64,000 bases of DNA from a bacterium (GTDB lineage Bacteria; Patescibacteriota; Minisyncoccia; JAHIHE01; JAGLIN01): the NCBI GenBank assembly GCA_030638825.1, contig DAOWDU010000011.1, positions 5,675-69,674 on the forward strand. Direction: 5' to 3'. The notes beneath the pieces were generated by a model, which saw only the letters and a list, made by a program, of their open reading frames with translations, was not told the origin of the DNA and did not search any database. This document shows positions 2,563 to 61,234 of the stretch, piece by piece. Position 1 is the first letter of the stretch; every line of letters begins with the position of its first letter. The position numbers were made by a program, and so were the translations under genes.

Positions 2563-4713
2563 TTACGGCAACGAATTAACATCTTTTTTTTTGTCTTCGC
2601 GAGACGATCTTTTCTTTTTCTTTGCCATTTCTTCAAACGCTTTTTTGTCTACTTCAATTTCTGGTTTATGTCTCGGATCATATTGTGTTAGGATTTTTTT
2701 GAGTTCTTCTTGAAGGGCAAAACTTTTCAAAGCTTTTTGAATAGATTCAATCGCTAATTTTTCCATTCTCTTATAATAGTGTTCTTCGTCAACTGCGTTT
2801 AATTCTCCTCCAGAGTCATGCCAAGTAGAATCAATGAATGAAATAATTAAATTTTCATCTGAGTCAACTGTGACAAGCATATTCCATTCGTGATCCATTT
2901 CTACAGAATGAGTAGTTAATACAATAAATTTATCAAAATTTGGCACACCTTCTTTTTCTAAAACATGTTTAGCAAAAGCAAGGGTTTTAGAATAATCACC
3001 ACAAATATATCCTCCTTCTAAAGTAAGATTAGGATCTTGAAAACTCATATTTTTTTCTTTTCTTTTTTCATCTTTTTCTTCGTCATATTCTACACCTTTT
3101 CCAATTACTTCAGAAATTATTTTGATGACTTCCTCTGGATTATCTTCAGCAACTTCTTTTAATTTTTCCAGTGAATAGCCATTTTTTTCCAAAAGTTCTA
3201 AAAACAATTTTTTAAATTCATCATTATTTTCATGTTCATTAAAATTATTTTTTTCTAATTCCTGTAAATTTTTAAATTCTTCTGAGGATGTTCCCTCCTT
3301 TTTTTCAAATATTATTTTATACATCTCATAGGTGTTGCTAATATTATCTACATCTACGCCATTTACATTTTCGTGACCACTCTGTTTAAACCATTCTATG
3401 AATTCTGACAAACTTTCAGTACTTATTTCTGGAAGTGTTTTGAATTGTAAATTGTTATGCATAATTTCACGATATTTTTGTTCCAATGATTGATCCATTG
3501 AGAATGTTCCATTTTCATTTTTTTTAAATATTAGCTCATTAACATCGCTAATATTATCTACATCTACGCCATTTACATTTTCGTGACCACTCTGTTTAAA
3601 CCATTCTATGAATTCTGACAAGATTTTATTATCTATTTTAGTGGTATTAGAATTATCGTCGAAATTGTTATCTAAAATCTCATGCCATTTTTGATTTAAT
3701 GTTTGATTTATCTCATAGTTATCTGCGCCTCCTATCTTAAAATCATTTAATTCTACCACTGAAACTTTGGAAGTGTCGGGTGTAATTTGGTTATCAATAT
3801 ATTTTTTAACCTCATTTTCTGGAATATTAAAACTATCAGCAATGATTTTTGCGACTTGCTCTTTATTTTCTATAAAATATTCTAATGAACTGCTTATGGT
3901 TTCTATCTTTTCTCCTTCTGCTGTAGTTCTTGGCGCATTAAAATTTATTCCCATGCTTTCTAAATCATTTTTAAGTTTATTCAGTTTTTCTTCGGTAAGA
4001 ATATTATTAAATGAAAAAGAAACAGTTTTTTCTGCGCTATTATTTTCATCAATTTCAGTTTCAACAAGAATTGAAAATGAATCTGGGTTATCTTGATTGT
4101 TATTGAAATGGTCAAAACTCTGTGATGGATATTTTTCCAATATATCAATAGGAGAATTTTGACTGTTTATCCGATCTATTTCTGCCATCAATTCTGGATT
4201 TTTTTCTAAGTCTTTCAGAGAAATTTTGTGACCTTTAATTTCCACTTTAACATCATCATCCACCAAAATATTTAAAGCTGGTGCACCATAGGAAGAAGCG
4301 TAAAGCGCTAATTCCCCCAAACTCACCACCTTTTTATGTTTTTTCGCAAACTCAAATGCTTCGTTAATTGATCCCTCAAGCTTTGAAGTTGTACCCGTTA
4401 CTAATTTCCCAGTTTTCTCGCTTTTCCAAAATTCATTCAAAGCTTTATCAATGCTATCTTTTATAAATTCAAGACTACCGCGATTTAAATTTTCTAGATT
4501 TTCAGGATTAAGACTTTCCAAATCAAGTCTCGCAAGTTCAATTAATTTATCCTTTGAAATATTTAATTCTCCCGCTTTCTTCTCAATTTTTTCAACAATA
4601 TCTTCTCTAAGCCCAGATATATCTTTTTCGGAAACTGGCTGATCATATTTATTCACTTTTTCACTATTTAAATCCTCAGGATTTGTATTAACTGTTTCTG
4701 AAAAAAATTTCAT
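2563..4713 (-). CDS. Hypothetical acidic protein (716 aa) with an internal exact duplication
   Basis: Long ORF with no recognisable catalytic motif. The peptide SEFIEWFKQSGHENVNGVDVDNIS occurs twice. It is encoded by two identical ~75 bp DNA segments (about 3338-3412 and 3548-3622). Confidence 0.5.
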   Translation of the reverse strand: MKFFSETVNTNPEDLNSEKVNKYDQPVSEKDISGLREDIVEKIEKKAGELNISKDKLIELARLDLESLNPENLENLNRGSLEFIKDSIDKALNEFWKSEKTGKLVTGTTSKLEGSINEAFEFAKKHKKVVSLGELALYASSYGAPALNILVDDDVKVEIKGHKISLKDLEKNPELMAEIDRINSQNSPIDILEKYPSQSFDHFNNNQDNPDSFSILVETEIDENNSAEKTVSFSFNNILTEEKLNKLKNDLESMGINFNAPRTTAEGEKIETISSSLEYFIENKEQVAKIIADSFNIPENEVKKYIDNQITPDTSKVSVVELNDFKIGGADNYEINQTLNQKWHEILDNNFDDNSNTTKIDNKILSEFIEWFKQSGHENVNGVDVDNISDVNELIFKKNENGTFSMDQSLEQKYREIMHNNLQFKTLPEISTESLSEFIEWFKQSGHENVNGVDVDNISNTYEMYKIIFEKKEGTSSEEFKNLQELEKNNFNEHENNDEFKKLFLELLEKNGYSLEKLKEVAEDNPEEVIKIISEVIGKGVEYDEEKDEKRKEKNMSFQDPNLTLEGGYICGDYSKTLAFAKHVLEKEGVPNFDKFIVLTTHSVEMDHEWNMLVTVDSDENLIISFIDSTWHDSGGELNAVDEEHYYKRMEKLAIESIQKALKSFALQEELKKILTQYDPRHKPEIEVDKKAFEEMAKKKKRSSREDKKKDVNSLP

Positions 4714-9493: not shown

Positions 9494-9578
9494 TGTTGTA
9501 GAATTATTATTTAATTTAAAAGAAAAAATATTAAATATTAAATATTAATTTCTTAATATTCAATATTTTTTAATATTT

Positions 9579-10350: not shown

Positions 10351-10514
10351 GAGCGTCATGTAAACATTAAAACATATAAACATTTAAACAAGTTGCGTAA
10401 TAAAGAATTTAATTCAAGAATAAAGTTTAGTGGTTTCTTTTTTATTTTTTACTGAAATCTTTATTCTAAAATTTGTTTATTTGTTTATATGTTTTAATGT
10501 TTATATGAACCCTG

Positions 10515-11236: not shown

Positions 11237-11361
11237 ATAATTTGGTTACTATTAATCTTTTAATTTAACTATTTTATACTACTTTATAAGAGAGGATTAG
11301 TCAAGGCGAGCGCATATAAATATATAAACATATAAACATTTAAACAAAGTTTATATCATTT

Positions 11362-14398: not shown

Positions 14399-15244
14399 TT
14401 AATTTATTAAATTCAAATACCACTTAATAATTTTCTCTCCCCAAAACAATCCCACAAAGGTTCCGATTATTAAAAATGGACCGAAGGGAATCATACTGCC
14501 CATTTTTTTCCTGCCAGCTAAAATTAGGAAAATGCCGATTACTGATCCGAGAATAAATGCTAAAAATAAAGCGATTAAAATTACTGGCCAGCCCAAAATC
14601 AGTCCCATTAAAAATGCCAATTTAACATCTCCTCCGCCCATTCCTTTGCCTTTGGTAATGATAATTATTGTGTAGAAAAATCCGCCTGCGAGAATAGCTG
14701 CGATAAACGGATTAAAAATAGTTGTTAAATTTCCAATTTCCAATTTCCAATTTCCAATCAATTCCCAATGATTAAATTTCAAAATTTCAAATAATTTATA
14801 AATGAAGGTTATAATAATCGCAGGATAAATTATTTTGTCTGGAATAATATAGTGTTTTAGGTCATAGACAAAAATAACAATAAAAGTGGAACTGACATAA
14901 AACAGAAATAATAGATAAAGAAATTGAAAATTGAAAATTGAAAATTCACTGAAAATTGAAAATTGAAAATTGAAAATTAGCACAAATAATATCCCTGTCA
15001 TAATTTCTACCAACGGATACTGAATAGAAATTTTATTGCTACAGTATCGGCACTTGCCTTTTAAAAATATAAAGCTAAAAACTGGAATTAAGTCTTGCCA
15101 ATTTAAGATGTGTTTGCAGGATAAGCATCTCGATCTGTCATTTACTATTTTTTCTCCGTTTTCTAATCTATAAATGACCACATTCAAAAAACTGCCGATA
15201 ATCAGGCCGAAGATGAAAATAATTATATTGTATAAAATAAGCAT
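14399..15244 (-). CDS. pilD: Prepilin peptidase (A24 family), carrying two internal heptamer tandem-repeat arrays
   Basis: Zn-binding cysteines CLSC...CRYC, peptidase motif GGGDVKL, and multi-TM topology. Confidence 0.9.
   Translation of the reverse strand: MLILYNIIIFIFGLIIGSFLNVVIYRLENGEKIVNDRSRCLSCKHILNWQDLIPVFSFIFLKGKCRYCSNKISIQYPLVEIMTGILFVLIFNFQFSIFSEFSIFNFQFLYLLFLFYVSSTFIVIFVYDLKHYIIPDKIIYPAIIITFIYKLFEILKFNHWELIGNWKLEIGNLTTIFNPFIAAILAGGFFYTIIIITKGKGMGGGDVKLAFLMGLILGWPVILIALFLAFILGSVIGIFLILAGRKKMGSMIPFGPFLIIGTFVGLFWGEKIIKWYLNLIN
14728..14769. repeat. Heptamer tandem repeat (ttccaat) x4-5 inside pilD
   Basis: Four perfect copies at 14731-14758 plus a degenerate copy. The unit length is not a multiple of 3. 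Confidence 0.85.
14920..14978. repeat. Heptamer tandem repeat (gaaaatt) x7-8 inside pilD, interrupted by cact
   Basis: Three copies at 14926-14946, then cact, then four copies at 14951-14978. Confidence 0.85.
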
Positions 15245-16950: not shown

Positions 16951-17041
16951 AGCATCAATACGAGAACATTAAAACATTCAAACAAAATTTTGAAATCGCA
17001 GTATGTTTAAATGTTAATATGTTTATATGTTAACATGACGC

Positions 17042-18523: not shown

Positions 18524-18524
18524 A

Positions 18525-18599
18525 TTGTTAAATTGTTAAATTGTTAAATTGTTAAATTGTTATGCGTGGCATAGCAATATTTTTATGCCATGCATAACA
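18525..18599. repeat. Octamer tandem repeat (attgttaa) x about 5, then a 15-bp inverted repeat (gttatgcgtggcata / tatgccatgcataac). It lies directly upstream of the response-regulator ATG.
   Basis: The tandem array spans 18525-18563, and the inverted repeat spans 18559-18573 / 18585-18599. The 21-mer atgcataacaatttaacaat recurs at 45370-45395. Confidence 0.7.
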
Positions 18600-18623
18600 A
18601 TTTAACAATGTAGCAATTTAATT

Positions 18624-21532: not shown

Positions 21533-22078
21533 TTATTCTTCGTTTCTCACCTTAACTTTCATTGAAGCGTTCTTTTCTATTTTCGGAAGTTTAACCGTAA
21601 GAATGCCGTTTTTGATTGTCGCTTCAACTCCTTCTGTTTTAATATCGCTTGGCAAAATAATTGAACGCGAAAAATTCCCCCAAAAACATTCTTGATAATA
21701 ATAATCGTCAGCTACGACATTGTCAGGATTTTCTCTCTTTCCTTTGATAGTCACCATATCGCTCGTAACGGAAATATCTAAGTTTTCAGGTCGGACGCCG
21801 CCAATAATTGATTTTACAACAATGAGTTCTTTTGTTTTGTAAACATCTACTGTCAACTGGCCTTCTTCGTTAATATCATCTTCTTTTCCTGAAAGCCATT
21901 CCTTGTCAATTTTTTTGTTTTCAGAATTATTCTCGTCAGTGTCTCCGTTGTCCGCTTCATTCTCGTTTGTTGTTTCTGTTTCTTTTTCTTCATCAGAATC
22001 AGAACTAACAATTCTGTTTAAAAATGATTTTTTTTGTTTTGTCATATTATTCATATTAACATTTAAATATATAAACAT
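21533..22078 (-). CDS. Hsp20/alpha-crystallin small heat-shock protein with an acidic N-terminal extension
   Basis: Alpha-crystallin domain: LTVDVYKTKELIVVKSIIGGVRPENLDISV ... GILTVKLPK. Confidence 0.75.
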   Translation of the reverse strand: MFIYLNVNMNNMTKQKKSFLNRIVSSDSDEEKETETTNENEADNGDTDENNSENKKIDKEWLSGKEDDINEEGQLTVDVYKTKELIVVKSIIGGVRPENLDISVTSDMVTIKGKRENPDNVVADDYYYQECFWGNFSRSIILPSDIKTEGVEATIKNGILTVKLPKIEKNASMKVKVRNEE

Positions 22079-22164
22079 TTAAACACAAATTTTAAAATAT
22101 AAAAAGCGACTGCTTGTTTATATGTTTACATGTTTACACGATTACATTATACCATTTTTAAAAA

Positions 22165-25100
22165 TTACAACAAGGACTTTATTTTTTCTTTCAGTTTTTT
22201 TATTTTTTTTTCGCTTTCCATAAATTTTTCTCTTTCTTTTTCAACAATTTCCCGCGGAGCATTGCCGACAAAATCATCATTGCCAAGTTTTGTTTTTATC
22301 TGGAAAATATATTTTTCTATATTTTCTATTTTTTTTTCTAAATTCTTTTTTTCTTTTTCTTTGTCAATTATTCCCTCTAAATAAATTTCAATATCGCCAA
22401 CAACTAAATAAACCGCGTCTTTGATTTTATCGTCCTTTTCTTTTATTTCTAATTTATCAATTCCAGTTCTGAGATTTTTGATTAAATGCGCTTGTGATTT
22501 GATAAATTCTTTTTTATTTCCAGCGTAAATTACAGCTTCAATTTTTTTACCTGGCTCAACCTTATATTCCGCGCGCGCGTTGCGAATGGCTTTAATAATA
22601 TTTTGAATTATTTCAAAATCGCGGGCTGTTGTGATTGTAGGGAACGGGCATGCCTGTTCCCTACAATCACGGTCAGCCCACTTTTCCACCATCAGTAAAT
22701 TTTCACTGTCTAAATTCTTCCAAATTTCTTCTGTCACAAACGGAATAAAAGGGTGAAATAAAATTAAAACTTGTTTTAAAATATAATTTAAAATCTCATT
22801 TTTATTTTTTTCAATTTTAGAAATTTCAATATACCAGTCAGCGAAATCGTTCCAGGTAAATTCTTTTATTTTTTCGCCAGCTTGCGAAAATTTATAATTA
22901 TTCAAATCATCTGTGACTTCTTTAGTTAAATTGTTTAGATTATTTAAGATCCATTTATCTGCTAATGTGGCATCAGAAGCTGGGCTTCCAATTGGAAGCC
23001 CAGCTTCTTTAGTATTATCAATATTCATAATAATATACCGTGAAACATTCCACAACTTATTCACAAAATTCCGATACCCTTCAACTTTTTCTTCATACAT
23101 CTTAATGTCATTTCCTGGACTGGATCCGATAATCATACTCAATCTCAAAGCGTCCGTTCCGTATTTCTCGATCATCTCGATCGGATCAATCCCATTTCCA
23201 AGAGACTTGCTCATTTTCTTTCCCTGCTTATCTCGTACCATTCCATGCAAATAAACATTTTCAAACGGGACTTCGCCAAGCGTATAAGTCGTCATCAAAA
23301 TCATTCTTGCCACCCAAAAAAACAAAATATCATAACCCGTTTCCATCACGCTTGTTGGATGAAACTTTTTCAAATCTGGACTATTCGCAACCCAATCTTC
23401 AAAAGTTTTATATTTCTCGTGATCCTGATTTAATAAAGTTGAAAATGTCCAAAGACCTGAGGAGAACCAGGTGTCTAGAGTGTCGGTGTCCTGTGTCCAG
23501 TTTTTTCCTTCTGGTGGATTAGTCCCAATATATATTTCTTGATTTTTATATTTCTTACCTTTCGGTATCATAGTATATACTATGGAACTATTATCAAATT
23601 TATTATTTAATTCATATTTCCATCCCGCTTGCCACTCTTTTGTTTTTCTCCAATCTTCATTAATCGCTTGCTCCCAAGTTCTATTTTTTAAAATTACATC
23701 TAGCGCTAACTGTGGAGCTTTGTGCGCAACAATAGCAATTTTTTTACCTTGATATTTATCTATTAAATCATTAAGAAAATCCCTGATTCTTTTTTCAACA
23801 TCTTTATAGCTCTCGCCCTTTGGAAATGGTTTGTCTATTACATTTTTTTCTATCACCAAAATTTCAGACGCACCAGCTTGTGTTAAATCTCCATAATCAC
23901 ACTCACGCAATCTTTCATCCTGAATGATTTTTACACCTCTATCACTAAACGTTAGGCTTGCAGAATCAACTGCTCGTTTCAAATCTGAACAAAATACAAT
24001 ATCAAATTTCTCATTTTCAATTGTTTTCTTTAAATCTTTTGACTGCTGAATTCCTAATTTTGATAATTTTACATCATAATGACCAGACGCTTTATTCTTC
24101 TCATTATCAATCGTCGTCCCATGAACAAAATAAGTAATATCAATTCCTGATTCCTGATTCCTGATTCCTGATTCATTTTTATACCAAACCGGAATCCGAT
24201 GCCCAAACCATAACTGACGGGAAATACACCAATCATGCAAATTTTCCATCCAATTATGATATGTTTTTTCAAATCTTTCAGGAATGATTTCAATTTTCTT
24301 GTCATTTTTTTCATCAGCTTTATTCACCACTTCCAAAGCAATTTCCTTCAAGGACTTATTTTGAAAATATTTATTTCCTCCAATTGTAATTTTCTTGTCA
24401 ACGGCGACAAACCATTGTTTTGATGGCAAAGGTTCAATCGGGGTATCACAGCGGTAGCAAATGCTTAAACTTTGATCTACTTCTTCAACTTTTTCAATTA
24501 AATTATTTTTCTCAAAATACTGGACTATTTTTTCTCGCGCTTCTAAAACTGTTAGTCCTTCATAATCTTTTCCTGCGTTCTCATTCATCTTCCCGTCTTC
24601 GCCAATAATTTTTATTTTCTCCAAATCATTTTTCTCTGCCATTTCCCAGTCAGTCATACTGTGCGCGGGAGTTACTCCTAATGCCCCAGTTCCAAACTTT
24701 ATTTCAACTTCTCTATCTGAAATAATTTTAATTTTATGTTTGCCATTTCCTAAATTTATTTCAAAAACTTTGCCAATATACTTTTTATATCTCTCATCTT
24801 TTGGATTAACAGCAACCGCTGTATCGCCTAACTTTGTTTCTGGTCTTGTTGTCGCGATTGTGATTGGAAAGTCTTTGTCATATTTAAAATAATACAGTTT
24901 CCCTTTTTGCTCTTCGTGTTCAACTTCATCATCCGCTAAAGTTGATTCGCATCTTGGGCACCAGTTGACAATTCTGTCTCCTCTATATATTAATTTATCA
25001 TTGAACATTTTTGTAAATACTTCCCTCACTGCGCGTGATAATCCATCATCAAGTGTGTATCTTTCCCTTGACCAATCGCAAGAAGAACCCATTTTTCTGG

Positions 25101-25512
25101 TTTGATTTTTAATTGTACTTTTTGAATTTTCTACATATTCATTTACTCGCTCCAGAAATTTCTCTCTGCCTAAATCATATTTCGTCTTCCCCTCTTTTGC
25201 GATTATCTTTTCTACTTTCGTCTGTGTCGCGATTGAAGCGTGGTCTGTTCCAGGAAGCCATAAAGTATTTTTTCCTTTCATTCTATTATACCTAATCATC
25301 AAATCCTGATAAGCAAGCATTGAAGCATGTCCTAAATGCAAAACTCCCGTCGCATTCGGCGGCGGCATTGAGATTGAAAAGTTTTGTAGGGAACAGGTAT
25401 GCCTGTTCCCTACAAAACTATTCGGATTAAAAAAACCAGACTTTTCCCAAGTCTTATAAATTTTATCTTCCACCTCTTGAGGATCATATGCTTTTGGAAT
25501 TTCTTTTTTCAT
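22165..25512 (-). CDS. valS: Valyl-tRNA synthetase with inserted domains
   Basis: HIGH (PNATGVLHLGHA), KMSKS and the anticodon-binding/coiled-coil C-terminus. 1115 aa, longer than typical ValRS because of insertions. Confidence 0.95.
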   Translation of the reverse strand: MKKEIPKAYDPQEVEDKIYKTWEKSGFFNPNSFVGNRHTCSLQNFSISMPPPNATGVLHLGHASMLAYQDLMIRYNRMKGKNTLWLPGTDHASIATQTKVEKIIAKEGKTKYDLGREKFLERVNEYVENSKSTIKNQTRKMGSSCDWSRERYTLDDGLSRAVREVFTKMFNDKLIYRGDRIVNWCPRCESTLADDEVEHEEQKGKLYYFKYDKDFPITIATTRPETKLGDTAVAVNPKDERYKKYIGKVFEINLGNGKHKIKIISDREVEIKFGTGALGVTPAHSMTDWEMAEKNDLEKIKIIGEDGKMNENAGKDYEGLTVLEAREKIVQYFEKNNLIEKVEEVDQSLSICYRCDTPIEPLPSKQWFVAVDKKITIGGNKYFQNKSLKEIALEVVNKADEKNDKKIEIIPERFEKTYHNWMENLHDWCISRQLWFGHRIPVWYKNESGIRNQESGIDITYFVHGTTIDNEKNKASGHYDVKLSKLGIQQSKDLKKTIENEKFDIVFCSDLKRAVDSASLTFSDRGVKIIQDERLRECDYGDLTQAGASEILVIEKNVIDKPFPKGESYKDVEKRIRDFLNDLIDKYQGKKIAIVAHKAPQLALDVILKNRTWEQAINEDWRKTKEWQAGWKYELNNKFDNSSIVYTMIPKGKKYKNQEIYIGTNPPEGKNWTQDTDTLDTWFSSGLWTFSTLLNQDHEKYKTFEDWVANSPDLKKFHPTSVMETGYDILFFWVARMILMTTYTLGEVPFENVYLHGMVRDKQGKKMSKSLGNGIDPIEMIEKYGTDALRLSMIIGSSPGNDIKMYEEKVEGYRNFVNKLWNVSRYIIMNIDNTKEAGLPIGSPASDATLADKWILNNLNNLTKEVTDDLNNYKFSQAGEKIKEFTWNDFADWYIEISKIEKNKNEILNYILKQVLILFHPFIPFVTEEIWKNLDSENLLMVEKWADRDCREQACPFPTITTARDFEIIQNIIKAIRNARAEYKVEPGKKIEAVIYAGNKKEFIKSQAHLIKNLRTGIDKLEIKEKDDKIKDAVYLVVGDIEIYLEGIIDKEKEKKNLEKKIENIEKYIFQIKTKLGNDDFVGNAPREIVEKEREKFMESEKKIKKLKEKIKSLL
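22631..22670. repeat. Family-A palindrome (gtgattGTAGGGAACgGGCATGCCTGTTCCCTACaatcac), in frame in valS
   Basis: 40-bp palindrome with one central mismatch. It encodes ...ACPFPTITT... in valS. Confidence 0.8.
22975..23008. repeat. Family-B palindrome (aGAAGCTGGGCTTCCAATTGGAAGCCCAGCTTCt), in frame in valS
   Basis: Perfect 34-bp palindrome. It encodes EAGLPIGSPAS. Confidence 0.8.
24143..24175. repeat. Heptamer tandem repeat (attcctg) x4 inside valS
   Basis: Encodes ESGIRNQESGI at the start of the ValRS insertion. Confidence 0.8.
25380..25419. repeat. Family-A palindrome (agttttGTAGGGAACAGGtATGCCTGTTCCCTACaaaact), in frame near the valS N-terminus
   Basis: It encodes the VGNRHTCSLQ insertion between the conserved N-terminal segment and the HIGH region. 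Confidence 0.8.
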
Positions 25513-25633: not shown

Positions 25634-28030
25634 ATGAACTTGAAATCAAGAAGCGTTTTTAAAAATATTCCTGGTGTGTTTTTGTTGTTGTTTGTCGTTG
25701 TCGCTGTTTTTATTCCATTAGGAGAAGCAAAAGCATTAGATCTTATTTCTTTTGATATTTTTAGCAGTTTAACGGAATGGACTGCTAAATTGTTAAAAGG
25801 AGATAGCGCAGTTATGACGACTATTTATTGGTTTGCATATCGGGTAATAAGTCTGGGCTTGTATTTCACGACGGTGTTGGTCTATTTCGGTTCCTGGCTG
25901 GTTGATGTTTTTCTTGACGAAGATATTTACGCGAGTGTTCTTAATATGAACGATTCAACTTCAGCGGTCGCTATCGGCTGGAGAACTGTTCGAGATGCTT
26001 GCAACACCTTTTTTATTTTATTTCTTCTGGTAATCGCTTTTTCCACAATCTTGCGAATTCAAGCGTATAGCGCCAAAAGTTTGCTTCCTAAATTGATAAT
26101 CTCTCTCTTTTTAATAAACTTCAGCGCAGTTATCGCAATGATGGTTATTGATCTGGGACAGGTTTTTATGTTTGAAATAAAGACCTGGATGGGAGCGGGA
26201 GGTTTTTCTGCTCCTAGCGGCGCCGGCAGTCCGCTGACTACAATCGTGGACTATTTTCATAACGAATATGGCTTGCACGAACCGCCGCCTTCAGGGGCAT
26301 ATTTAATGTCAGATGTCGTTGGCGTTATGTTTGCGGTTGCTTATTCCGCTATTCTCGGTCTTCTCTATATTATGCTGGCGCTGTTCCTAATGGTTCGGAT
26401 TATAGTTTTCGTAATCCTGATCATAATTTCTCCGTTTGCTTTTTTCAGTATGATCTTGCCAGGAATGAGGACATACACTTCCCAATGGTGGCAGAGTTTG
26501 GTAAGCCACGCCATCTTCGGTCCCGTTTTTCTCTTCTTCATTTTTCTGGCTAGCAAAATGGCGCAATCAATGCAGACATTTAATTCTACTGTTCCTGAAC
26601 CTGCGGATATGGAGCCCTTGTCTTACATAATCGCAAAATTAATCCCCCATATAGTCGCAATGGGAATGCTCATGGCGGCAATTCCCGTCACCCAAAAATT
26701 AGGCGTAGCCGGCGCCAACAAATTCATCGGCGGCGCGGCAGGGATTGGGAAGATTGGAATTGGAGCGGTGGCAGGAGCTAAGTTGGCGGGTGGGTTTGGG
26801 AAGAAGGTTGGGGCTCCTATAACAAGAAGAAGTGGTGTGCCTGATAAGATGAGAAGGGGAACTGATAATATTAAAGGTAGTATCGCTGAAAATAAATGGG
26901 CGCAAAAGGCTGGTATAAGCAAGATTATCTTAAGGGGAGATTCCAATAAATTTAGCAGTCAAAGAGATCAGGTTGAAAAAGAGAAAAAAGGATGGATTAA
27001 CAGTGCACAAAAAGATAATCTTTATGGAGAACTTAAAAATTCTAAGGGGAAGTCTAGCGCTGAAATTGCGGCAATTATTGAAAGAATGTCTGAAAAGAAA
27101 ATGCTTAATGAAAAAGATCTTAAAAGTCACAAGATTGAAGGTCAAACTTTGTCTAATATACTTTCAAGAGCAAAACCTGCTTTGGATGCAGACAAGCTTA
27201 AGGAGTCTATGCCACAATGGGCAGCGATAGTTGAAGCGGGACCGGGAAAAGGAAAGGAAAATATAATAAAAGGAAGAACCAAAGAAATTACAACTGAAAT
27301 GGTTGAAGAAAATAAGTTGAGTTCTTTGAATAATGCCGCTCTTGAGAGCGCTGATGTTATGAAGACAATATTTGATCAACATGATGATCCTGATAAATGG
27401 CTTTCTTCACAAAGTACAGCAAGACAGGATTCAGCAAATATAGGTTTGGAAAACTTGCTTAAAAAATACCAGAAAGAGATACACAACGAAGGCGTTGGAG
27501 GTGTAGATTTTAACAATGTAAATAATGCTGCTATCGGACATGCAAACCCTATAGGAAATACGGGAATGGACGGAGATAAACTCAGAAAAGAAATTGATAG
27601 CATACAAAAATCATTAGCCAAGAATGATAAAAATGGACATGAGAAACTCAATAGACCGACGATTCTTGCTAATGGAGAAATAGATATTGACCTTACTACT
27701 GGAAGAATAGATTTTGCTGGAGCGCCCATTCCAGTAGCAGGAACGCCAGAACATACAGCATGGGAAAGTAGAAGAAAAGAAACTGCAGAAGGAATGAAAG
27801 GTGAAACCGGATTCAAATATAAGAGTAGAGAATTTTATGAGGATATGGGGCAATATTTAGCTAAGGCTCAACTTGACACATTAAGAAAATCTGGGAACAC
27901 TGAACAAATGAGAGCAGCGAAAGATTCTATTCTTTCGCGTGGGGCACGTGTTGGTCATGTGAGTACCGCTTCTCCCGAAATTCGTAGCTATGTTAGTGTT
28001 GGAGGTAATACTTACTATGAAAACTTGTAA
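25634..28030 (+). CDS. Large polytopic membrane protein, VirB6/ConG-like (T4SS channel component), with a Gly-rich linker and a hydrophilic C-terminal half
   Basis: Signal peptide, then an extracytoplasmic segment and 6-8 TM helices (W..VRDACNTFFILFLLVIAF pattern). Gly-rich GVAGANKFIGGAAGIGKIGIGAVAGAKLAGG. Confidence 0.45.
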   Translation: MNLKSRSVFKNIPGVFLLLFVVVAVFIPLGEAKALDLISFDIFSSLTEWTAKLLKGDSAVMTTIYWFAYRVISLGLYFTTVLVYFGSWLVDVFLDEDIYASVLNMNDSTSAVAIGWRTVRDACNTFFILFLLVIAFSTILRIQAYSAKSLLPKLIISLFLINFSAVIAMMVIDLGQVFMFEIKTWMGAGGFSAPSGAGSPLTTIVDYFHNEYGLHEPPPSGAYLMSDVVGVMFAVAYSAILGLLYIMLALFLMVRIIVFVILIIISPFAFFSMILPGMRTYTSQWWQSLVSHAIFGPVFLFFIFLASKMAQSMQTFNSTVPEPADMEPLSYIIAKLIPHIVAMGMLMAAIPVTQKLGVAGANKFIGGAAGIGKIGIGAVAGAKLAGGFGKKVGAPITRRSGVPDKMRRGTDNIKGSIAENKWAQKAGISKIILRGDSNKFSSQRDQVEKEKKGWINSAQKDNLYGELKNSKGKSSAEIAAIIERMSEKKMLNEKDLKSHKIEGQTLSNILSRAKPALDADKLKESMPQWAAIVEAGPGKGKENIIKGRTKEITTEMVEENKLSSLNNAALESADVMKTIFDQHDDPDKWLSSQSTARQDSANIGLENLLKKYQKEIHNEGVGGVDFNNVNNAAIGHANPIGNTGMDGDKLRKEIDSIQKSLAKNDKNGHEKLNRPTILANGEIDIDLTTGRIDFAGAPIPVAGTPEHTAWESRRKETAEGMKGETGFKYKSREFYEDMGQYLAKAQLDTLRKSGNTEQMRAAKDSILSRGARVGHVSTASPEIRSYVSVGGNTYYENL

Positions 28031-28825: not shown

Positions 28826-28972
28826 GAAATAATTTCTAATTTTCAATTTCTAATTTCTATTAAATTTTCAAGGAATTAAGTTTCAAATAATATTTTGAAA
28901 ACAAGAATTTAGAACTTGAAGAATTTAGAACTTTAATAAAAATTAGAAATTAGAAATTGAAAATTTAAATTC

Positions 28973-30750: not shown

Positions 30751-30875
30751 AAATTGTTCCAAATTACTCCAAATCAAATCTAAAATCCAAATCTTAAAAA
30801 TAAATTTTAGTATTTGAAATTTGGATTTGATTTGGAATAATTTGAGCTTTGGAACAATTTGGATTTTTATAGATT
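30751..30875. mobile_element. Solo copy of the ccaaat/atttgg inverted-repeat pair forming a ~120-bp hairpin (MITE-like), between the two VirB4-like ORFs
   Basis: L2 (30751-30800) and R2 (30806-30875) are adjacent. They are homologous to L1 and R1, which flank the gene at 29509-29922. Confidence 0.6.
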
Positions 30876-30897
30876 AAATTATTATAATAAAAAATAT

Positions 30898-32739
30898 ATG
30901 TCTTTACTGGATAAAATTCTACCAAACAAAACTCAATCCAAAACAACCATAGATCCTTCCCAAAAGTCCGCTCTTTTGGAGTCGGAAAAAATATATCAAA
31001 GAGGATTGGCGACGGTCAAAGATATTATCGCTCCCGCGGCTTTTAAAATTGAGTCGGATCATGTAATGATTAACAAAAAAATGGCCTCAACCTTTTTTGT
31101 TTACGCTTATCCGAGGTTTTTGCAAACAAACTGGTTTTCTCCGATTATAAACCTGGACACGACTTTTGATATTGCAATGTTTATTCATCCTCAAAGCACC
31201 GCTGAGATTTTAAGGAATTTGCGGAAGATTATAACCCAAATCCAATCGCAAATTTCTATTAACGAAGAAAAGGGGTTGGTAAGAGACCCAATTTTGGAAA
31301 CTGCTTTTCAGGATGTTGAGAATTTAAGAGATGATTTGCAGCAGGGAGTTGAGCATTTTTTTCAGTTCGGTCTTTATATCACAATATATGGAGATACAAA
31401 AGAAGAACTAAGAAAAATTGAGACTCAAATAGAAGCAATTTTAGAATCAAAACTTATTTATATCAAACCAGCCATTATGCAAATGGAGGCGGGATTTAAT
31501 TCAACGCTTCCGCTCGGATCTGATAAACTGATGATCGGAAATAATATGAACACCTCTCCCCTTTCCACTACTTTTCCTTTTGTATCCAGCGACTTAACTT
31601 CCAATCAGGGGATATTATATGGGATTAACAGGCACAATAACAGTTTGGTTCTGTTTGACAGATTTTCTATGGAAAATGCGAATATGGTTATTTTCGCCAA
31701 ATCTGGCGCTGGAAAAAGTTACGCTGTGAAACTTGAAATTTTACGAAGTTTAATGATGGACACTGAAGTTATTATTATTGATCCTGAAGATGAATATAAA
31801 CATCTTTGTGAAACTACAGGAGGAACTTTCTTGAGAATTTCTCTGTCGTCAAAACATCATATCAATCCGTTTGACTTGCCGACCGCTATGGAAGATGAAA
31901 CTCCAGCTGATGTTTTGCGAACCGCTATTTCAAATATTTCAGGACTTTTAAAAGTTATGCTTGGAAAAATCTCCACGGAAGAAGATTCAATTTTAGACAG
32001 AGCGATCGCGGAAACTTATGCTATTAAAGATATCACTCCCGAAGCTGATTTTACTAATTTAGAAATGCCGACAATGACAGACTTGCAGATGGTTTTAGAA
32101 AATATGAAGGGCGCGGAAAGTTTATCTATCAGAATTAAAAAATATACAGAAGGAACTTTCGCTGGGTTTTTAAATCACAAGACAAACATTAGTGTTGATA
32201 CAGGAATGATTGTTTTCAATATCAGAGATATGGAAGATGAATTAAGGCCAGTAGCGATGTATTTAATCCTGCATTTTATTTGGACATTGATTAGAACAAA
32301 AACGAAAAAAAGAATGATGGTTATTGACGAAGCCTGGTGGATGATGCAGCACGAGGATGCCGCTTCGTTTCTTTTTGGAATTGCGAAAAGATGCCGAAAG
32401 TATTATTTAGGTCTGACGACTATTACGCAGGATGTGACTGATTTTATGGGCTCTAGATTTGGCAAGCCGATTGTGACGAATTCCTCAATTCAGCTTTTGC
32501 TCAAACAGTCCCCCGCGGCGATTAAAGTTATCGTGGACACATTTTATCTGACAGACGAAGAAAAGTTTTTGCTCTTGGAAAGCAATGTCGGGGAAGGAAT
32601 TTTCTTCGCTGGCCCGAAGCGCGCGGCGATCAAAGTTGTCGCTTCTTATTCCGAAGATCAAATTATAACTTCTGACCCGGCGCAATTGTTGGAAATTGAG
32701 AGGGCGAAGAAGGAATTAAGAGAGATAGCGGGAGAGTAG
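30898..32739 (+). CDS. VirB4/TrbE/CagE-family T4SS ATPase (C-terminal ATPase part). The start is reassigned to the ATG at 30898.
   Basis: Walker A FAKSGAGKSYAVK, Walker B MMVIDEAWWMM and RK...TQ. The ORF-track start at 30859 is a TTG inside the repeat element, and a tataat lies 9 nt before the ATG at 30898. Confidence 0.7.
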   Translation: MSLLDKILPNKTQSKTTIDPSQKSALLESEKIYQRGLATVKDIIAPAAFKIESDHVMINKKMASTFFVYAYPRFLQTNWFSPIINLDTTFDIAMFIHPQSTAEILRNLRKIITQIQSQISINEEKGLVRDPILETAFQDVENLRDDLQQGVEHFFQFGLYITIYGDTKEELRKIETQIEAILESKLIYIKPAIMQMEAGFNSTLPLGSDKLMIGNNMNTSPLSTTFPFVSSDLTSNQGILYGINRHNNSLVLFDRFSMENANMVIFAKSGAGKSYAVKLEILRSLMMDTEVIIIDPEDEYKHLCETTGGTFLRISLSSKHHINPFDLPTAMEDETPADVLRTAISNISGLLKVMLGKISTEEDSILDRAIAETYAIKDITPEADFTNLEMPTMTDLQMVLENMKGAESLSIRIKKYTEGTFAGFLNHKTNISVDTGMIVFNIRDMEDELRPVAMYLILHFIWTLIRTKTKKRMMVIDEAWWMMQHEDAASFLFGIAKRCRKYYLGLTTITQDVTDFMGSRFGKPIVTNSSIQLLLKQSPAAIKVIVDTFYLTDEEKFLLLESNVGEGIFFAGPKRAAIKVVASYSEDQIITSDPAQLLEIERAKKELREIAGE

Positions 32740-37821: not shown

Positions 37822-37928
37822 TGATTAACCTATAACTGAAAACAAATAACTTATAACTCGCGATGGCAAAAAAGAAAAGAGCGTTTCTATAATTTCTGTT
37901 CTTTGAATAGTGTTAATTTGAAATGCAT

Positions 37929-39620
37929 TTAATTTTCGTAGATGTCATAATCTTCGTAGTCGTAATAATCGTAATAATCGTAATCATAATTATAATCATA
38001 ATTCAAAATATCAATTATCCTGATGGTATTTTCCTTTGAAGTGGCTATTACTAGGATATTATTTTTGGCAAAATAATCAAAACTGATATCTTTAGTAGGC
38101 AAGTTTATATATCTAATATAAGTGTAGCCGTAATTCGTAAATTCAAAACGCTGGTCAAAGCGTTCTTCTATTTTGCTGTCCGTAAATAATGGCTCAAAGA
38201 CTTTGAACATTTTCTTTTTAGCAACGCTTTCTTGCTCCCAATCCCCCATCGTTTTCAGCAAAGAGACAAGATCGTTTGATTCTATCGCAATTGCAAATCT
38301 AAAAGCGTTTGTTCCTGTTTTTATGGCAAAAATATTATAGCTTTCAGTTGTTGTTTCCCAAAAACTGTCTGGGAAGTTCTTGGTTTCAATTCTGATATCT
38401 TCCAACGCTTCTTTCAGTGAGACTATATTGTTATCGTCTTTTATTACAATTCTCAATTCTTTAATATCGTCATCTCTCCCGAATTTTTCGTTAATAGCGC
38501 TTTCCTTAAATCCCATTTTGACGATGTCGTCTTTAGTAAATTCAATAGAGCTCTTAATTTGAGCGAACTCTTTTATTTCTGTTCCAATAATAACTACTGG
38601 AGGCTCGAACGGAGTCGGGGTGAGTTTTCTAACGAGAACATAATAAATCGCTCCGGATAGAATAATTAAAAGAAGCGCTATCGGAATAATTTTTTTCCAG
38701 GGCAGCGAAAACAGCTTTATATTGTATTTTTTTATTACCCTGCTTTTTAATTTCTTGTATTTTTCTTTCTCAGAAATAATTTTTTGCTTTTCTTTCATTT
38801 CGGCAGTGCTTTTCATATCTTCTATTTCATCTTTTTTTTCTTTTAGTTTAATCCTTTTAGAAACAGAGCTGTATTTTTTTTGTTTTCCGAAAATCAGTCT
38901 ATTCTCCGGCGATTGATAGCCGTCATCGTTATAGAAACTTTTTATTGCCTCCTTTTTCTTTTCTGGCTCTTTCTCTGTCTTAAGAGATTTTTCCTTTGTT
39001 AATACTCCAGAATTTTTATATTCTTTTTCCTTGTTTTCTTTCTCTATATTTTTTATATCTTCAACACGCTTTGTTATTTTGCGAGGTTCTGTGGGTTTAT
39101 CGTCCTTGAGTTTTTTTGAAATATTATTCCAAAATGATTGTTTGTCTTCCTCTGTTTTTTCTATTTCAGCCGCTCTTTTTTCCTCTAATTCATCGTCCGT
39201 CTTTTCTGTCTGGACTTCCTGATTTTCTTTCTTGTCAATTGTTTCTGAAATTTTATCAATAAGATCCTCCAATTCTTTTTTGTCATCGCTTTTCAAATCA
39301 ACTTGTTTTTCTTCTTGCTCTGTTGCCTTTTCTTCGCTTGCCGTATCTACTATAGCAGTTTCTTCCTCTGTATCTTTTTTCACTGATTCTTTTTCATCGT
39401 CATTTTTTGAAATTCTTTCTATAAGATTTTTTAGTTCGTCAATTTCTTCATCCTTTAATTTTCCGGAAGTTGTGTCGGGCGCCACGACAGAACCAGATAT
39501 TTCCGCAGTGGCAATATCTGGTTTCTTTTGACCTTGCTCCTCTTTTAATAATTTTCCGCTTTCATTATCAGAAGAAGCAAGATCATCTTTCATTGTTCTT
39601 ATTTTTATTTTTCCTTTCAT
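37929..39620 (-). CDS. Hypothetical acidic coiled-coil membrane protein with a C-terminal Tyr/Asp-rich tail
   Basis: One TM helix (IIPIALLLIILSGAIYYVLV), a long E/K-rich N-terminal half, and the tail YDYNYDYDYYDYYDYEDYDIYEN. Confidence 0.5.
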   Translation of the reverse strand: MKGKIKIRTMKDDLASSDNESGKLLKEEQGQKKPDIATAEISGSVVAPDTTSGKLKDEEIDELKNLIERISKNDDEKESVKKDTEEETAIVDTASEEKATEQEEKQVDLKSDDKKELEDLIDKISETIDKKENQEVQTEKTDDELEEKRAAEIEKTEEDKQSFWNNISKKLKDDKPTEPRKITKRVEDIKNIEKENKEKEYKNSGVLTKEKSLKTEKEPEKKKEAIKSFYNDDGYQSPENRLIFGKQKKYSSVSKRIKLKEKKDEIEDMKSTAEMKEKQKIISEKEKYKKLKSRVIKKYNIKLFSLPWKKIIPIALLLIILSGAIYYVLVRKLTPTPFEPPVVIIGTEIKEFAQIKSSIEFTKDDIVKMGFKESAINEKFGRDDDIKELRIVIKDDNNIVSLKEALEDIRIETKNFPDSFWETTTESYNIFAIKTGTNAFRFAIAIESNDLVSLLKTMGDWEQESVAKKKMFKVFEPLFTDSKIEERFDQRFEFTNYGYTYIRYINLPTKDISFDYFAKNNILVIATSKENTIRIIDILNYDYNYDYDYYDYYDYEDYDIYEN

Positions 39621-47195: not shown

Positions 47196-47339
47196 AATTC
47201 ATTTCTTACGCCGCTTAAAACAAATAAATAATAAGCCGAATTTTGTTTTCTGATATAAAATCAAAATGATAATCATCTATCTAGCCATACTATTGCTAGT
47301 ATGATCAAGCGAGCTACTTTTTTCCCAACTAACTTACAA

Positions 47340-47693
47340 CTTACAACTTACAATTTTAATATTGTTATTTGTTATGAGTTATAGGTTATAAGTTAGTCAG
47401 GATTTGCTCTTGCACCAGGCAGGGTTTACCATCATTTGCTGTCACCAGCAAGGAAAGAGCGTAGATTTAAATTTATAAAAATTCAAATCATCGCCCAACT
47501 TTTCACCTTTTATCATGTATAACATGATTAGTATAGTCTCTGTGGCACTTTCCCTATCCTAAAAAAATTAGAACGGTTGCCGTTAGCAACTGCCTGCTTC
47601 CAGGTTATTTTAAAGTAATCTGGGGTGTTCGGACTTTCCTCTCCTATTCTTTAAAAGAACAAAAGCGATTATCTAATTTACCATTTTAAGCTC
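47340..47693 (-). ncRNA. rnpB: RNase P RNA (bacterial type), ends approximate
   Basis: The non-coding region is GC-richer than its surroundings. The minus strand carries GAGGAAAGUCCGAAC (P4 5' strand), GGGAAAGUGCCACAGAGA, AAGGUGAAAAG, GGUAAACCCUGCCUGG and GCAAGAGCAAAU in canonical order. An extended -10 TGTATAAT lies at 47700-47707 (minus strand). Confidence 0.6.
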
Positions 47694-53386: not shown

Positions 53387-53432
53387 CAAGTTATGTTAGA
53401 ATGTTAGCATGTTAAAATGTTAAAATGAAATT

Positions 53433-57595: not shown

Positions 57596-58156
57596 ATGAC
57601 AATAGATATTAATAAAATTGGCAGTGGGGGGTTTATGAATCCAGATAAAATTGTGGAAGAACTCAATATTAAAAACGGGATGTTCGTTGCTGATTTTGGC
57701 TGTGGCGCTGGATATTTTACAATCCCAATCGCTAAAATAATAAAAAACAGCGGCAAAATTTACGCAATAGATGTTTTAAATGAATCGTTAGAAAATGTTT
57801 TAAGCAAAGCAAAATTATATGATTTGCTTAATATTAAAACTGTTCGGGCTAATATAGAAATAATTGGCGGATCAAAAATAGAAAGCGGTTCCGTTGATTT
57901 GGTAATTCTCGCCAATATACTTTTTCAATGCAATGATCATAGTTCGGTTTTGAACGAAGCTAAGAGAATCTTGAAGAATAATGGCAGTGTTGTTGTTGTA
58001 GATTGGATTCCCAAAAAAGTTCCTTTAGGACCAAAATATGAGCATTGCCTCAGCGAGGAAACTATAAAAAAACTTGCTATAAAGAATGGACTGAAAGTTG
58101 TCAGAAAAATAGACGCTGGAAATCAGCATTATGGGATGGTGTTGAAAAACATATAA
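57596..58156 (+). CDS. Class I SAM-dependent methyltransferase
   Basis: Motif I VADFGCGAGYFTIPIA. Confidence 0.8.
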   Translation: MTIDINKIGSGGFMNPDKIVEELNIKNGMFVADFGCGAGYFTIPIAKIIKNSGKIYAIDVLNESLENVLSKAKLYDLLNIKTVRANIEIIGGSKIESGSVDLVILANILFQCNDHSSVLNEAKRILKNNGSVVVVDWIPKKVPLGPKYEHCLSEETIKKLAIKNGLKVVRKIDAGNQHYGMVLKNI

Positions 58157-58216
58157 ACATATAAACATATAAACATATAAACATATAAACATATAAACAT
58201 ATAAACATATAAACAT
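58151..58216. repeat. Octamer tandem repeat (atataaac) x8.25, overlapping the methyltransferase stop codon
   Basis: Perfect copies from 58151. The unit is the core of the recurrent intergenic ACATATAAACA motif. Confidence 0.9.
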
Positions 58217-59699: not shown

Positions 59700-59780
59700 T
59701 TATAATTTGAAAACATAACGAATAAGAAACAAGGACACAAGAAATAAGAAATTTGTTTGGGATTTGTATCTTGATTAATA

Positions 59781-59857
59781 TGGTGGGCCATCCTGGACTC
59801 GAACCAGGGACTTCGACCTTATAAGGATCGCGCTCTAACCAACTGAGCTAATGGCCC
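59781..59857 (-). tRNA. tRNA-Ile with anticodon UAU (reads AUA), CCA encoded
   Basis: The reverse complement gggccattagctcagttggttagagcgcgatccttataaggtcgaagtccctggttcgagtccaggatggcccacca has anticodon stem cgatc/ggtcg, loop ctTATaa, A37 and the GGTTCGAGTCC T-arm. Confidence 0.8.
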
Positions 59858-60011
59858 AAAGTCATATAAACATTTAAGCATATAAGCATTTAAATATGTT
59901 GAGACTTCAGCTTTTTGTTTATATGTTTAGGTGTTTACATGTTTACATGATGTTATTCTAATAAAAAAATGTTAATTCGTCAATTCCAATATTCAAAATA
60001 TTCAATTATTT

Positions 60012-61190: not shown

Positions 61191-61234
61191 CAAATTTAGT
61201 ATTTAGTATACAGTATTTAGTATTAAGCCAAAAA

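Follow-up and report, generated by a model that had tools for sequence, protein, structure and literature searches.

A histidine phosphatase domain nested in the CP3 loop of a Patescibacteria valyl-tRNA synthetase, and the variable content of that loop among relatives

The question raised by this locus is what a phosphatase-like domain is doing in the middle of a valyl-tRNA synthetase (ValRS), and whether it belongs there at all. The locus lies in a stretch of 64,000 nucleotides (contig DAOWDU010000011.1 of assembly GCA_030638825.1, positions 5,675 to 69,674), hereafter the window, whose valS gene had been singled out in an earlier note for an insertion resembling a histidine phosphatase. The reading favoured here, with a probability of roughly 0.55, is that the insertion acts as a phosphatase of its own, tethered to a ValRS that still works, in a hot spot of domain gain and loss.

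The valS gene was that of a Patescibacteria (CPR) bacterium, and the encoded ValRS was complete. The Pfam profiles tRNA-synt_1 (1e-123), Anticodon_1 and Val_tRNA-synt_C all matched the open reading frame (ORF), and two NCBIfam valS equivalogs were reached (NF004349, 1011.5 bits vs. a cutoff of 704; TIGR00422, 946.4 vs. 612.1). The editing-domain profile PF13603 scored slightly below its cutoff (24.1 vs. 25). With the full-length structural model, the top Foldseek match was Thermus thermophilus ValRS (1GAX; E = 9.8e-59, target-normalised TM 0.82); Pfam and Foldseek together recovered the Rossmann fold, the CP1 editing domain, the anticodon-binding domain and the C-terminal coiled coil of a ValRS. 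The N-terminal 40% of the protein was 85% identical to insert-free relatives, and the synthetase is for this reason taken to be a working enzyme; its aminoacylation probably proceeds normally.

The insertion fell at the tip of CP3, in the hairpin that links the GHRIPVWY strand to the DTLDTWFSS helix; CP3 is the segment that follows the CP2-3 linker and extends as far as the second half of the Rossmann fold (PMC7955072; PMC7191050). In isoleucyl-tRNA synthetase (IleRS), the HRIPVWY region of ValRS has its equivalent in the CP2-3 linker and the beginning of CP3 (PMC7955072, PMC7191050); in yeast IleRS, the linker is the counterpart of DW-x-SRQ-x-WFG, directly upstream of CP3, and in IleRS it lines the pocket for the CCA end of the tRNA (PMC7955072). 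The topology of CP3 varies among class Ia enzymes, in some of which it binds zinc (PMC7191050). The host features were located as follows.

22165..25512, minus strand: valS ORF, 1115 amino acids (aa), host of the insert (ORF listing)
25327..25338, minus strand: HIGH signature, HLGH, aa 59-62 (motif read)
24181..24201, minus strand: HRIPVWY strand, aa 438-444, N-terminal anchor of the variable CP3 segment (conserved across 120 ValRS relatives)
23485..24180, minus strand: entire variable CP3 segment, aa 445-676, 232 aa
23485..23538, minus strand: native CP3 beta-hairpin, kept, aa 659-676, EIYIGTNPPEGKNWTQDT (model strands 659-662 and 672-674)
23458..23484, minus strand: DTLDTWFSS, aa 677-685, C-terminal anchor and start of the second Rossmann-fold half
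23203..23217, minus strand: KMSKS signature, aa 766-770 (motif read)

The EIYIGTNPPEGKNWTQDT hairpin was homologous to the 21-aa basal loop 'EIYVGxExPxGxGWxQD' of relatives. The statement that a canonical ValRS is short at this site was borne out, relatives having 21-29 aa there or a 29-aa CxxC...CxxC knuckle. An insertion was indeed present, at 232 aa for the whole segment instead of the approximately 270 aa first estimated, and with a guest domain of about 182 aa instead of approximately 210 aa; the excess of the segment over the guest is due to two linkers and the native hairpin.

The guest was delimited at aa 455-636 (~182 aa; 303.9 bits) with a hidden Markov model (HMM) built from free-standing relatives, and His_Phos_1 (PF00300) matched aa 464-601 (E = 1.9e-30; 106.4 bits vs. 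a gathering score of 21.7), which upheld its assignment to the branch-1 histidine phosphatases. The HMM-defined bounds fell within the interval 23540-24190 proposed earlier for the domain.

23605..24150, minus strand: guest domain, aa 455-636, a branch-1 histidine phosphatase of type i ('ITYFVHGTTxDNE' subfamily)
24121..24126, minus strand: V463-H464, RHG-motif position, catalytic His retained and Arg replaced by Val (PhoE alignment)
23974..23976, minus strand: R513 (in LKRA), phosphate-binding Arg (PhoE alignment, family conservation)
23902..23904, minus strand: E537 (in RECDYGD), putative proton donor (PhoE alignment, family conservation)
23722..23724, minus strand: H597 (in VAHKAP), second catalytic His (PhoE alignment, family conservation)

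In the alignment to PhoE (1EBB/1H2E), V463-H464-G465 corresponded to RHG, R513 to Arg59, E537 to Glu83 and H597 to His151. All the motifs quoted in the earlier note were present, with the catalytic roles proposed there, and N470, which had not been named, also aligned to a conserved Asn of PhoE. These five residues (H464, N470, R513, E537 and H597) were invariant in 24 of 24 ValRS-embedded copies and in 120 of 120 free-standing members of the subfamily, the embedded copies being only about 55-77% identical overall (n = 24); with such invariance, the pseudo-enzyme scaffold suggested earlier is unlikely. The loss of the RHG Arg was as described, Val or another non-Arg residue being found throughout the subfamily: in all 144 members, the catalytic His was preceded by V, P, A, T or I and in none by R. 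Its absence from the whole subfamily marks it as a subfamily trait and not as decay following insertion. None of the named NCBIfam equivalogs (CobC, PspA, dPGM, GpmB) was reached (best TIGR03162 cobC, 89.3 vs. 162.9 bits), so the substrate of the guest is not assignable by homology.

Judged by pairwise identities, the guest was conserved at least as strongly as its host ValRS: 80.7% vs. 79% for the locus L007, 77% vs. 75% for P0122 and 68% vs. 62% for P0136. No stop codons or frameshifts were found in embedded guests across dozens of lineages, and the type-i phosphatase had a subfamily-specific C-terminal segment, 'DWRxxKxWxxGWxY'. The nested phosphatase is complete and is predicted to be active.

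An AlphaFold2 model of the full protein, made with a 64-sequence alignment, had a mean pLDDT of 86.9. The guest (aa 457-636) was its best-scored part (pLDDT 94-98), and pLDDT was below 50 on both of its flanks (aa 448-454 and aa 641-657). Strands and helices alternated in the guest model; Foldseek was run with the full-length model only, and returned only synthetases. The guest is accordingly modelled as a separately folded domain on two flexible tethers, of ~12 and 22 residues, inside CP3. The junction residues of the insert were K445/N446 and Q658/E659.

24143..24174, minus strand: perfect heptanucleotide array (TCAGGAA) of 4.6 copies, encoding the N-terminal tether NESGIRNQESGI (TRF, period 7, 100% matches)
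23539..23604, minus strand: C-terminal tether, aa 637-658, NNKFDNSSIVYTMIPKGKKYKN, predicted disordered (pLDDT)
23569..23584, strand not applicable: perfect 16-bp palindrome CATAGTATATACTATG within the C-terminal tether, single-copy in the window

The TRF array confirmed the heptamer repeat that had been reported to border the N-terminal side of the insertion. The SSIVYTMIPK motif of the C-terminal tether was also found in the ValRS P0225 and P0235. The palindrome was considered as the end of a multicopy mobile element and was rejected as such, being found once in the window and in 2 of 91 loci; a 24-mer containing it had one match in the metagenome collection, located in another valS. The palindrome being otherwise rare, it is read as a remnant of a shared linker and not as a multicopy mobile element. 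An intein or other self-splicing element was likewise rejected, in that no Hint or intein Pfam match and no splice-junction residues were found; the insert was wholly explained by the His_Phos domain plus linkers.

Such an architecture might be an artefact, either of a chimeric assembly or of a sequencing frameshift fusing two genes; the source is a metagenome-assembled genome, and a perfect heptamer microsatellite lies at one junction. The ValRS reading frame, however, continued on both sides of the insert, with the native hairpin kept. The exact protein was present in NCBI-derived data (P0121), and a protein identical at 1114 of 1115 positions (P0510) was encoded on contigs of two other metagenome assemblies, from different samples, with a valS-hsp20-pilM neighbourhood common to the window and both of these assemblies. 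More than 40 diverged homologues had the identical architecture. An artefact is extremely improbable, and misassembly, which the earlier note had named as one outcome that would overturn its claim, is effectively refuted and for practical purposes excluded by the same gene being held by two other assemblies.

The guest was 62-68% identical to a large family of free-standing proteins of ~180 aa ('ITYFVHGTTxDNE ... PGWEY'), with hosts among Patescibacteria, Peregrinibacteria, Woesearchaeota and Diapherotrites. The embedded version retained the whole free-standing ORF except the region of the start codon. These similarities indicate that the guest derives from the ~180-aa free-standing phosphatases common in CPR bacteria and DPANN archaea. 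By local BLAST, its closest relatives were other embedded copies (P0122, 77%; P0136 and P0168, 68-69%), followed by free-standing ones; a first indication that all its nearest relatives were free-standing was discarded as a bias of candidate selection, because long proteins, that of the query among them, were missing from the list. Around three free-standing copies, the gene neighbourhoods had nothing in common: one was beside an archaeal-type leucyl-tRNA synthetase (LeuRS), one between trx and trxB, and one beside an ABC transporter and EF-2. In a tblastn search of the window for a second His_Phos gene, the sole other match (E = 0.36) was within an AP_endonuc_2 TIM-barrel protein. A role as a component of a defence system was dismissed, with 0 PADLOC families at E ≤ 0.01.

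The content of CP3 was surveyed in the best 120 ValRS matches and in 70 parsed loci from GTDB species representatives. In the best 120 matches, the CP3 segment ranged from 21 to 713 aa. Two basal states were distinguished, the 29-aa CxxC...CxxC knuckle and a 21-46-aa hairpin of the 'EIYVGxExPxGxGWxQD' type. A histidine phosphatase was present at CP3 in 40 of the 120, and identifiable enzyme guests in 8 of the 70 parsed loci, approximately 5 more having unassigned inserts of 81-105 aa; these frequencies are biased upward because both surveys ranked matches by a phosphatase-containing query. An aminoacyl-tRNA synthetase with an embedded phosphatase had been expected to be new. As to uniqueness, this did not hold, given the 40 carriers; as to publication, it stood, no published description having been found.

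The CP3 phosphatases formed at least three clusters: type i, grouped with a related 'IRHGESQGN' form; type ii, with a classical 'RHGQTDWN' motif; and a third, inserted between the halves of the zinc knuckle (L003, L005). The type-ii guest was 36% identical to the type-i guest of the window and 63% identical to a free-standing protein, and this greater nearness to a free-standing protein indicates that the phosphatase subfamilies were captured separately. Other CP3 guests were Ser_hydrolase (PF06821) and PhzF (PF02567) by Pfam, and ASCH (PF04266), which was confirmed in two cases and matched guests of the 'IETRAG' type more weakly; several CP3 inserts of 81-108 aa matched no family in a profile search. 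Guests were also stacked. A type-i phosphatase was followed by a Ser_hydrolase in L007, the ValRS of which was 79% identical to that of the window, and a phosphatase by an ASCH-like domain in P0168. P0150 had a type-i phosphatase, an ASCH-like domain and a type-ii phosphatase. P0156 (1750 aa) had a 713-aa loop with four guests, namely a type-i phosphatase, an ASCH-like domain, a type-ii phosphatase and a Ser_hydrolase, the last at the tip of the hairpin, past the native strand. P0204 had a degenerate embedded copy without the RHG motif. Of the 70 loci, 8 had perfect arrays of at least three heptamers in the DNA of the loop, as did the window valS; this is far above chance. Taken across these sequences, the comparison indicates that CP3 of these ValRS is a polymorphic hot spot of whole-domain gain, stacking, replacement and loss. 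The Pfam search, structure prediction and ValRS survey that the earlier note had proposed as checks thus yielded a phosphatase match, a separate domain and a recurrent insertion, respectively.

As a separate observation, P0156 had an additional His_Phos domain at aa 1167-1347, downstream of DTLDTWFSS, which marks a second insertion site in that protein.

Insertion states were scattered on a neighbour-joining tree computed from the loop-free ValRS body. Counting of type-i gain events from a neighbour-joining tree was abandoned, the internal branches being too short; the separation of the subfamilies alone was robust. Two pairs of close genomes were compared at the DNA level. L090, with an 'IRHG' phosphatase guest, and L091, with a plain 41-aa loop, were syntenic and 99-100% identical in DNA over most of 9 kb, vs. 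63-73% identity over ~1.1 kb of valS around CP3, with a difference of 516 nt; a diverged tract of this kind is the mark left by allelic replacement through recombination. L088, with an ASCH-like guest, and L089, which was guest-free, were 98-100% identical downstream of the loop and differed by a single clean 396-bp indel. Its left edge was within an (AAATTCA)n heptamer array and its right edge adjoined AGTTCCATAGTATATACTATGATACC, a stretch of ~30 nt with the 16-bp palindrome. The same ~30-nt stretch constituted the C-terminal tether in the window, the ValRS of which was about 60-65% identical to those of L088 and L089. Guest turnover appears to proceed by two routes: homologous replacement of the CP3 region between alleles, and short-homology deletion beside heptamer arrays, the arrays plausibly promoting slippage and short-homology deletion. 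Near-identical genomes with or without a guest imply that the guest is dispensable for ValRS function.

Two further observations were made in these loci. In L090 (1913-3039), compared with L091, a Fib_succ_major surface-protein gene was highly diverged in its 3' part, as was the spacer behind it (44-82% identity), which is a second recombination or variable tract, adjoining valS. In L092 and L089, both with a P0235-type ValRS, a second heptamer-encoded peptide, SSKFKVQSSKFKG, was present in a different loop, after 'QWFVSV'; repeat-derived in-frame insertions are thus not confined to CP3.

Turnover of this kind would also be expected if the guest were a neutral or selfish passenger in a permissive surface loop, an ORF captured in frame with the help of repeat-mediated recombination, with no selected role and destined for eventual decay or deletion. 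The presence or absence of guests between strains and their clean deletion, the scatter of insertion states on the ValRS tree, the heterogeneous repertoire, the microsatellites and palindrome at the junctions, and the degenerate P0204 all agree with a passenger. A purely neutral one is nevertheless hard to square with five catalytic residues invariant in 24 embedded copies that are otherwise about 55-77% identical, with a guest at least as conserved as its host, or with dozens of lineages free of stop codons and frameshifts; nor is the palindrome a multicopy element. The passenger explanation is on balance doubtful.

The occurrence of the guest in other proteins was assessed by an exhaustive HMMER search with the guest domain against 1.84 billion cluster representatives, which returned 66 matches at E ≤ 1e-30, the best including ValRS fragments and full-length ValRS. 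The type-i phosphatase was also present in the N-terminal charged region of seven FtsY proteins (P0246-P0248, P0250, P0254, P0259 and P0265), in the order Ser_hydrolase, phosphatase, FtsY in P0250. The IleRS P0258 had a Ser_hydrolase-like insert and a phosphatase, at two other positions. Fusions of the type-i phosphatase to an HD domain, a dCTP-deaminase-like domain and an alpha/beta hydrolase were found as well. Judging from these architectures, the guest family is promiscuous across large essential carrier proteins. Further large proteins encoded in the window (IF-2, LigA, PilB, PNPase, UvrD, GyrA and a TraG-like protein) showed no guest insertions.

A bacterial-type LeuRS (959 aa; L082, 8497-10549, also in L083 and L084), encoded beside a free-standing phosphatase homologue, had a NUDIX (PF00293) insert between the editing region and RDWVFSRQRYWGEPIP. 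It is another class Ia synthetase bearing a hydrolase guest.

The main rival explanation ties the job of the phosphatase to ValRS or tRNA. Examples are the clearing of a 3'-phosphate or 2',3'-cyclic phosphate from the ends of damaged tRNA ahead of charging, hydrolysis of a by-product of adenylate chemistry, and reversal of the phosphorylation of the synthetase by a toxin kinase. Such a job is suggested by the separate capture of at least three subfamilies at the same loop, sometimes two or three per protein, by the strictly conserved catalytic residues, by the RNA-associated ASCH fold among the co-guests and by the LeuRS with a NUDIX insert seen nearby; the tethers, moreover, begin ~10 residues from the CP2-3 linker (CCA pocket in IleRS, PMC7955072). 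Against it, PhzF and Ser_hydrolase, neither with an obvious link to tRNA, are guests of the same loop, the disordered tethers give no fixed geometry, near-identical genomes exist with and without the guest, and the domain is found at unrelated sites of FtsY and IleRS and in abundant free-standing proteins. A ValRS- or tRNA-linked job is therefore unlikely. The editing or regulatory module considered in the earlier note is similarly not favoured by the disordered tethers, the unrelated guests in sister ValRS, the guest-free near-identical genomes and the same domain in FtsY and IleRS.

Under the preferred reading of an independent phosphatase at a domain hot spot, the guest would act as a tethered enzyme on a small phosphorylated substrate; the preferred guess is that it serves salvage or 'house-cleaning', with a nucleotide or nucleoside phosphate as substrate. 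The guest would take no part in aminoacylation or editing, and the ValRS would be mainly a constitutively expressed carrier. The weakest step is the substrate: the HD, dCTP-deaminase-like and ASCH partners and the nearby NUDIX lean to nucleotide or nucleoside chemistry, which would fit salvage-dependent organisms.

Several points weigh against this reading. The nucleotide-salvage guess is based solely on fusion partners (HD, dCTP deaminase-like, ASCH), and the substrate of the guest, and even its activity, are inferred. The canonical RHG Arg is absent (V463), and the chemistry could be altered or weak. Capture of at least three phosphatase subfamilies at one ValRS loop hints at a ValRS-specific benefit, and repeated capture at the same loop is not explained by the idea of a mere carrier. 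The base of CP3 adjoins the CP2-3 linker, which makes a role with tRNA geometrically possible. The upward bias of the guest frequencies counts here too.

A bolder proposal, put forward tentatively and considered improbable, is that CP3 of Patescibacteria ValRS is a cassette platform on which in-frame enzyme ORFs are stacked, exchanged between strains and deleted, helped by recombination at heptamer arrays and linker palindromes, the guests forming a tethered toolkit for nucleotide or RNA salvage or tRNA repair. The guests may comprise several histidine phosphatase subfamilies, ASCH and Ser_hydrolase, with NUDIX in LeuRS and, in other lineages, the same phosphatase and hydrolase in FtsY and IleRS; in ultra-small symbionts, the toolkit may be physically attached to the machinery of translation and targeting.

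Compared with known systems, the guest resembled the PhoE / CobC / PspA type (Bacillus stearothermophilus PhoE, 1EBB/1H2E) in PF00300, catalytic residues and size (~180-200 aa), and differed in the Val replacing the RHG Arg, its own C-terminal segment and its nested position. The host resembled T. thermophilus ValRS (1GAX) in overall fold (TM 0.82), with the insert at the class Ia CP3 position. Many CPR relatives retained the 29-aa CxxC...CxxC version of CP3, whereas CP3 in the window bore a 182-aa enzyme and that of relatives up to four, in loops of up to 713 aa. A class Ia synthetase joined to an unrelated enzyme domain is already described by NF040702, 'isoleucine--tRNA ligase, N-acetyltransferase domain-containing' (ileS_w_GNAT), a curated NCBIfam exception model with a different guest fold and host; among synthetases with extra catalytic domains, no counterpart to a polymorphic, multi-guest CP3 site of ValRS was found. 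The bifunctional RNase H / acid phosphatase (NF005567, PRK07238) is also a His_Phos domain fused to a nucleic-acid enzyme, but end-to-end, whereas the guest of the window is nested; NF005567 matched the window protein weakly (61 bits vs. a cutoff of 326). The Rickettsia palindromic elements are selfish multicopy repeats of 100-150 bp, inserted in frame in surface loops of essential genes. The repeat and palindrome DNA of the window resembles them in lying in frame within a loop of an essential gene, and differs in that its repeats are short microsatellites, its palindrome is single-copy and its main insert is a complete enzyme gene.

In literature outside subscription journals, no account was found of a ValRS bearing a histidine phosphatase or of CP3 domain cassettes in CPR bacteria. 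The nested CP3 phosphatase, the multi-guest, strain-variable loop and the same guests in FtsY and IleRS appear to be undescribed; PF00300, ValRS, synthetases with appended enzymes and the database entry under a generic name are already known. Few proteins are as conserved as the class Ia synthetases, and CP3 is usually regarded as a small structural appendage. In a large uncultured bacterial radiation, this appendage takes whole enzymes, up to four in tandem, and its content varies among genomes with 99-100% DNA identity elsewhere. With active guests, ValRS would be a multi-enzyme scaffold, and reduced genomes would have a new way of packaging accessory chemistry; such a ValRS would also be a natural experiment in tolerance to domain insertion, useful to protein engineering. 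If they act on tRNA or nucleotides, aminoacylation would be linked to repair or salvage in organisms unable to make nucleotides. On the practical side, variable ValRS loops can mislead valS-based phylogenies and marker-gene pipelines, and the phosphatase-bearing ValRS goes in NCBI under the generic name 'class I tRNA ligase family protein'.

Repeats of the kind found at the valS junction were present elsewhere in the window. The PilD ORF (A24_N + Peptidase_A24; 14399-15244, minus strand) had two in-frame heptanucleotide arrays, at 14728-14758 and 14921-14978 (AATTTCC, 4.4 copies, and AAATTGA, 8.7 copies), encoding 'GNWKLEIGN' and FNFQFSIFSEFSIFNFQF; the peptide 'FNFQFSIFN' was common to a PilD array and the ValRS loop of another organism (L050). 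The RNase P RNA (47216-47684, minus strand; RF00010, 131 bits) was 469 nt long vs. a 367-position model and contained two heptamer arrays (47331-47353 and 47371-47395), so that microsatellites of this type also occur within the gene of a structured RNA. Further period-7 arrays, in a UvrD-like helicase ORF and in intergenic DNA near tRNA genes, were at 48072-48092, 9526-9567, 28830-28969, 37826-37858, 59721-59752 and 61194-61224. Heptamer microsatellites seem to be a genome-wide feature.

Period-8 arrays were found at 58147-58216, 22053-22147, 10357-10507, 11313-11346, 17002-17037, 18524-18621, 53393-53427 and 59863-59949, with the units AAACATAT (8.8 copies), CATATAAA, TGTTTAAA, TGTTTACA and ATTGTTAA. 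They were intergenic and often formed oppositely oriented pairs around genes; one site was the spacer that separates hsp20 from the 3' end of valS. ARAGORN placed a tRNA-Ile with anticodon UAU at 59781-59857. Three ORFs, at 25634-28030 (plus strand, 798 aa), 2563-4713 (minus strand, 716 aa) and 37929-39620 (minus strand, 563 aa), had no Pfam match at E ≤ 1e-5. The 798-aa product, encoded divergently from its neighbour valS and upstream of a TraG-like P-loop protein (30859-32739), resembled a multi-pass membrane protein.

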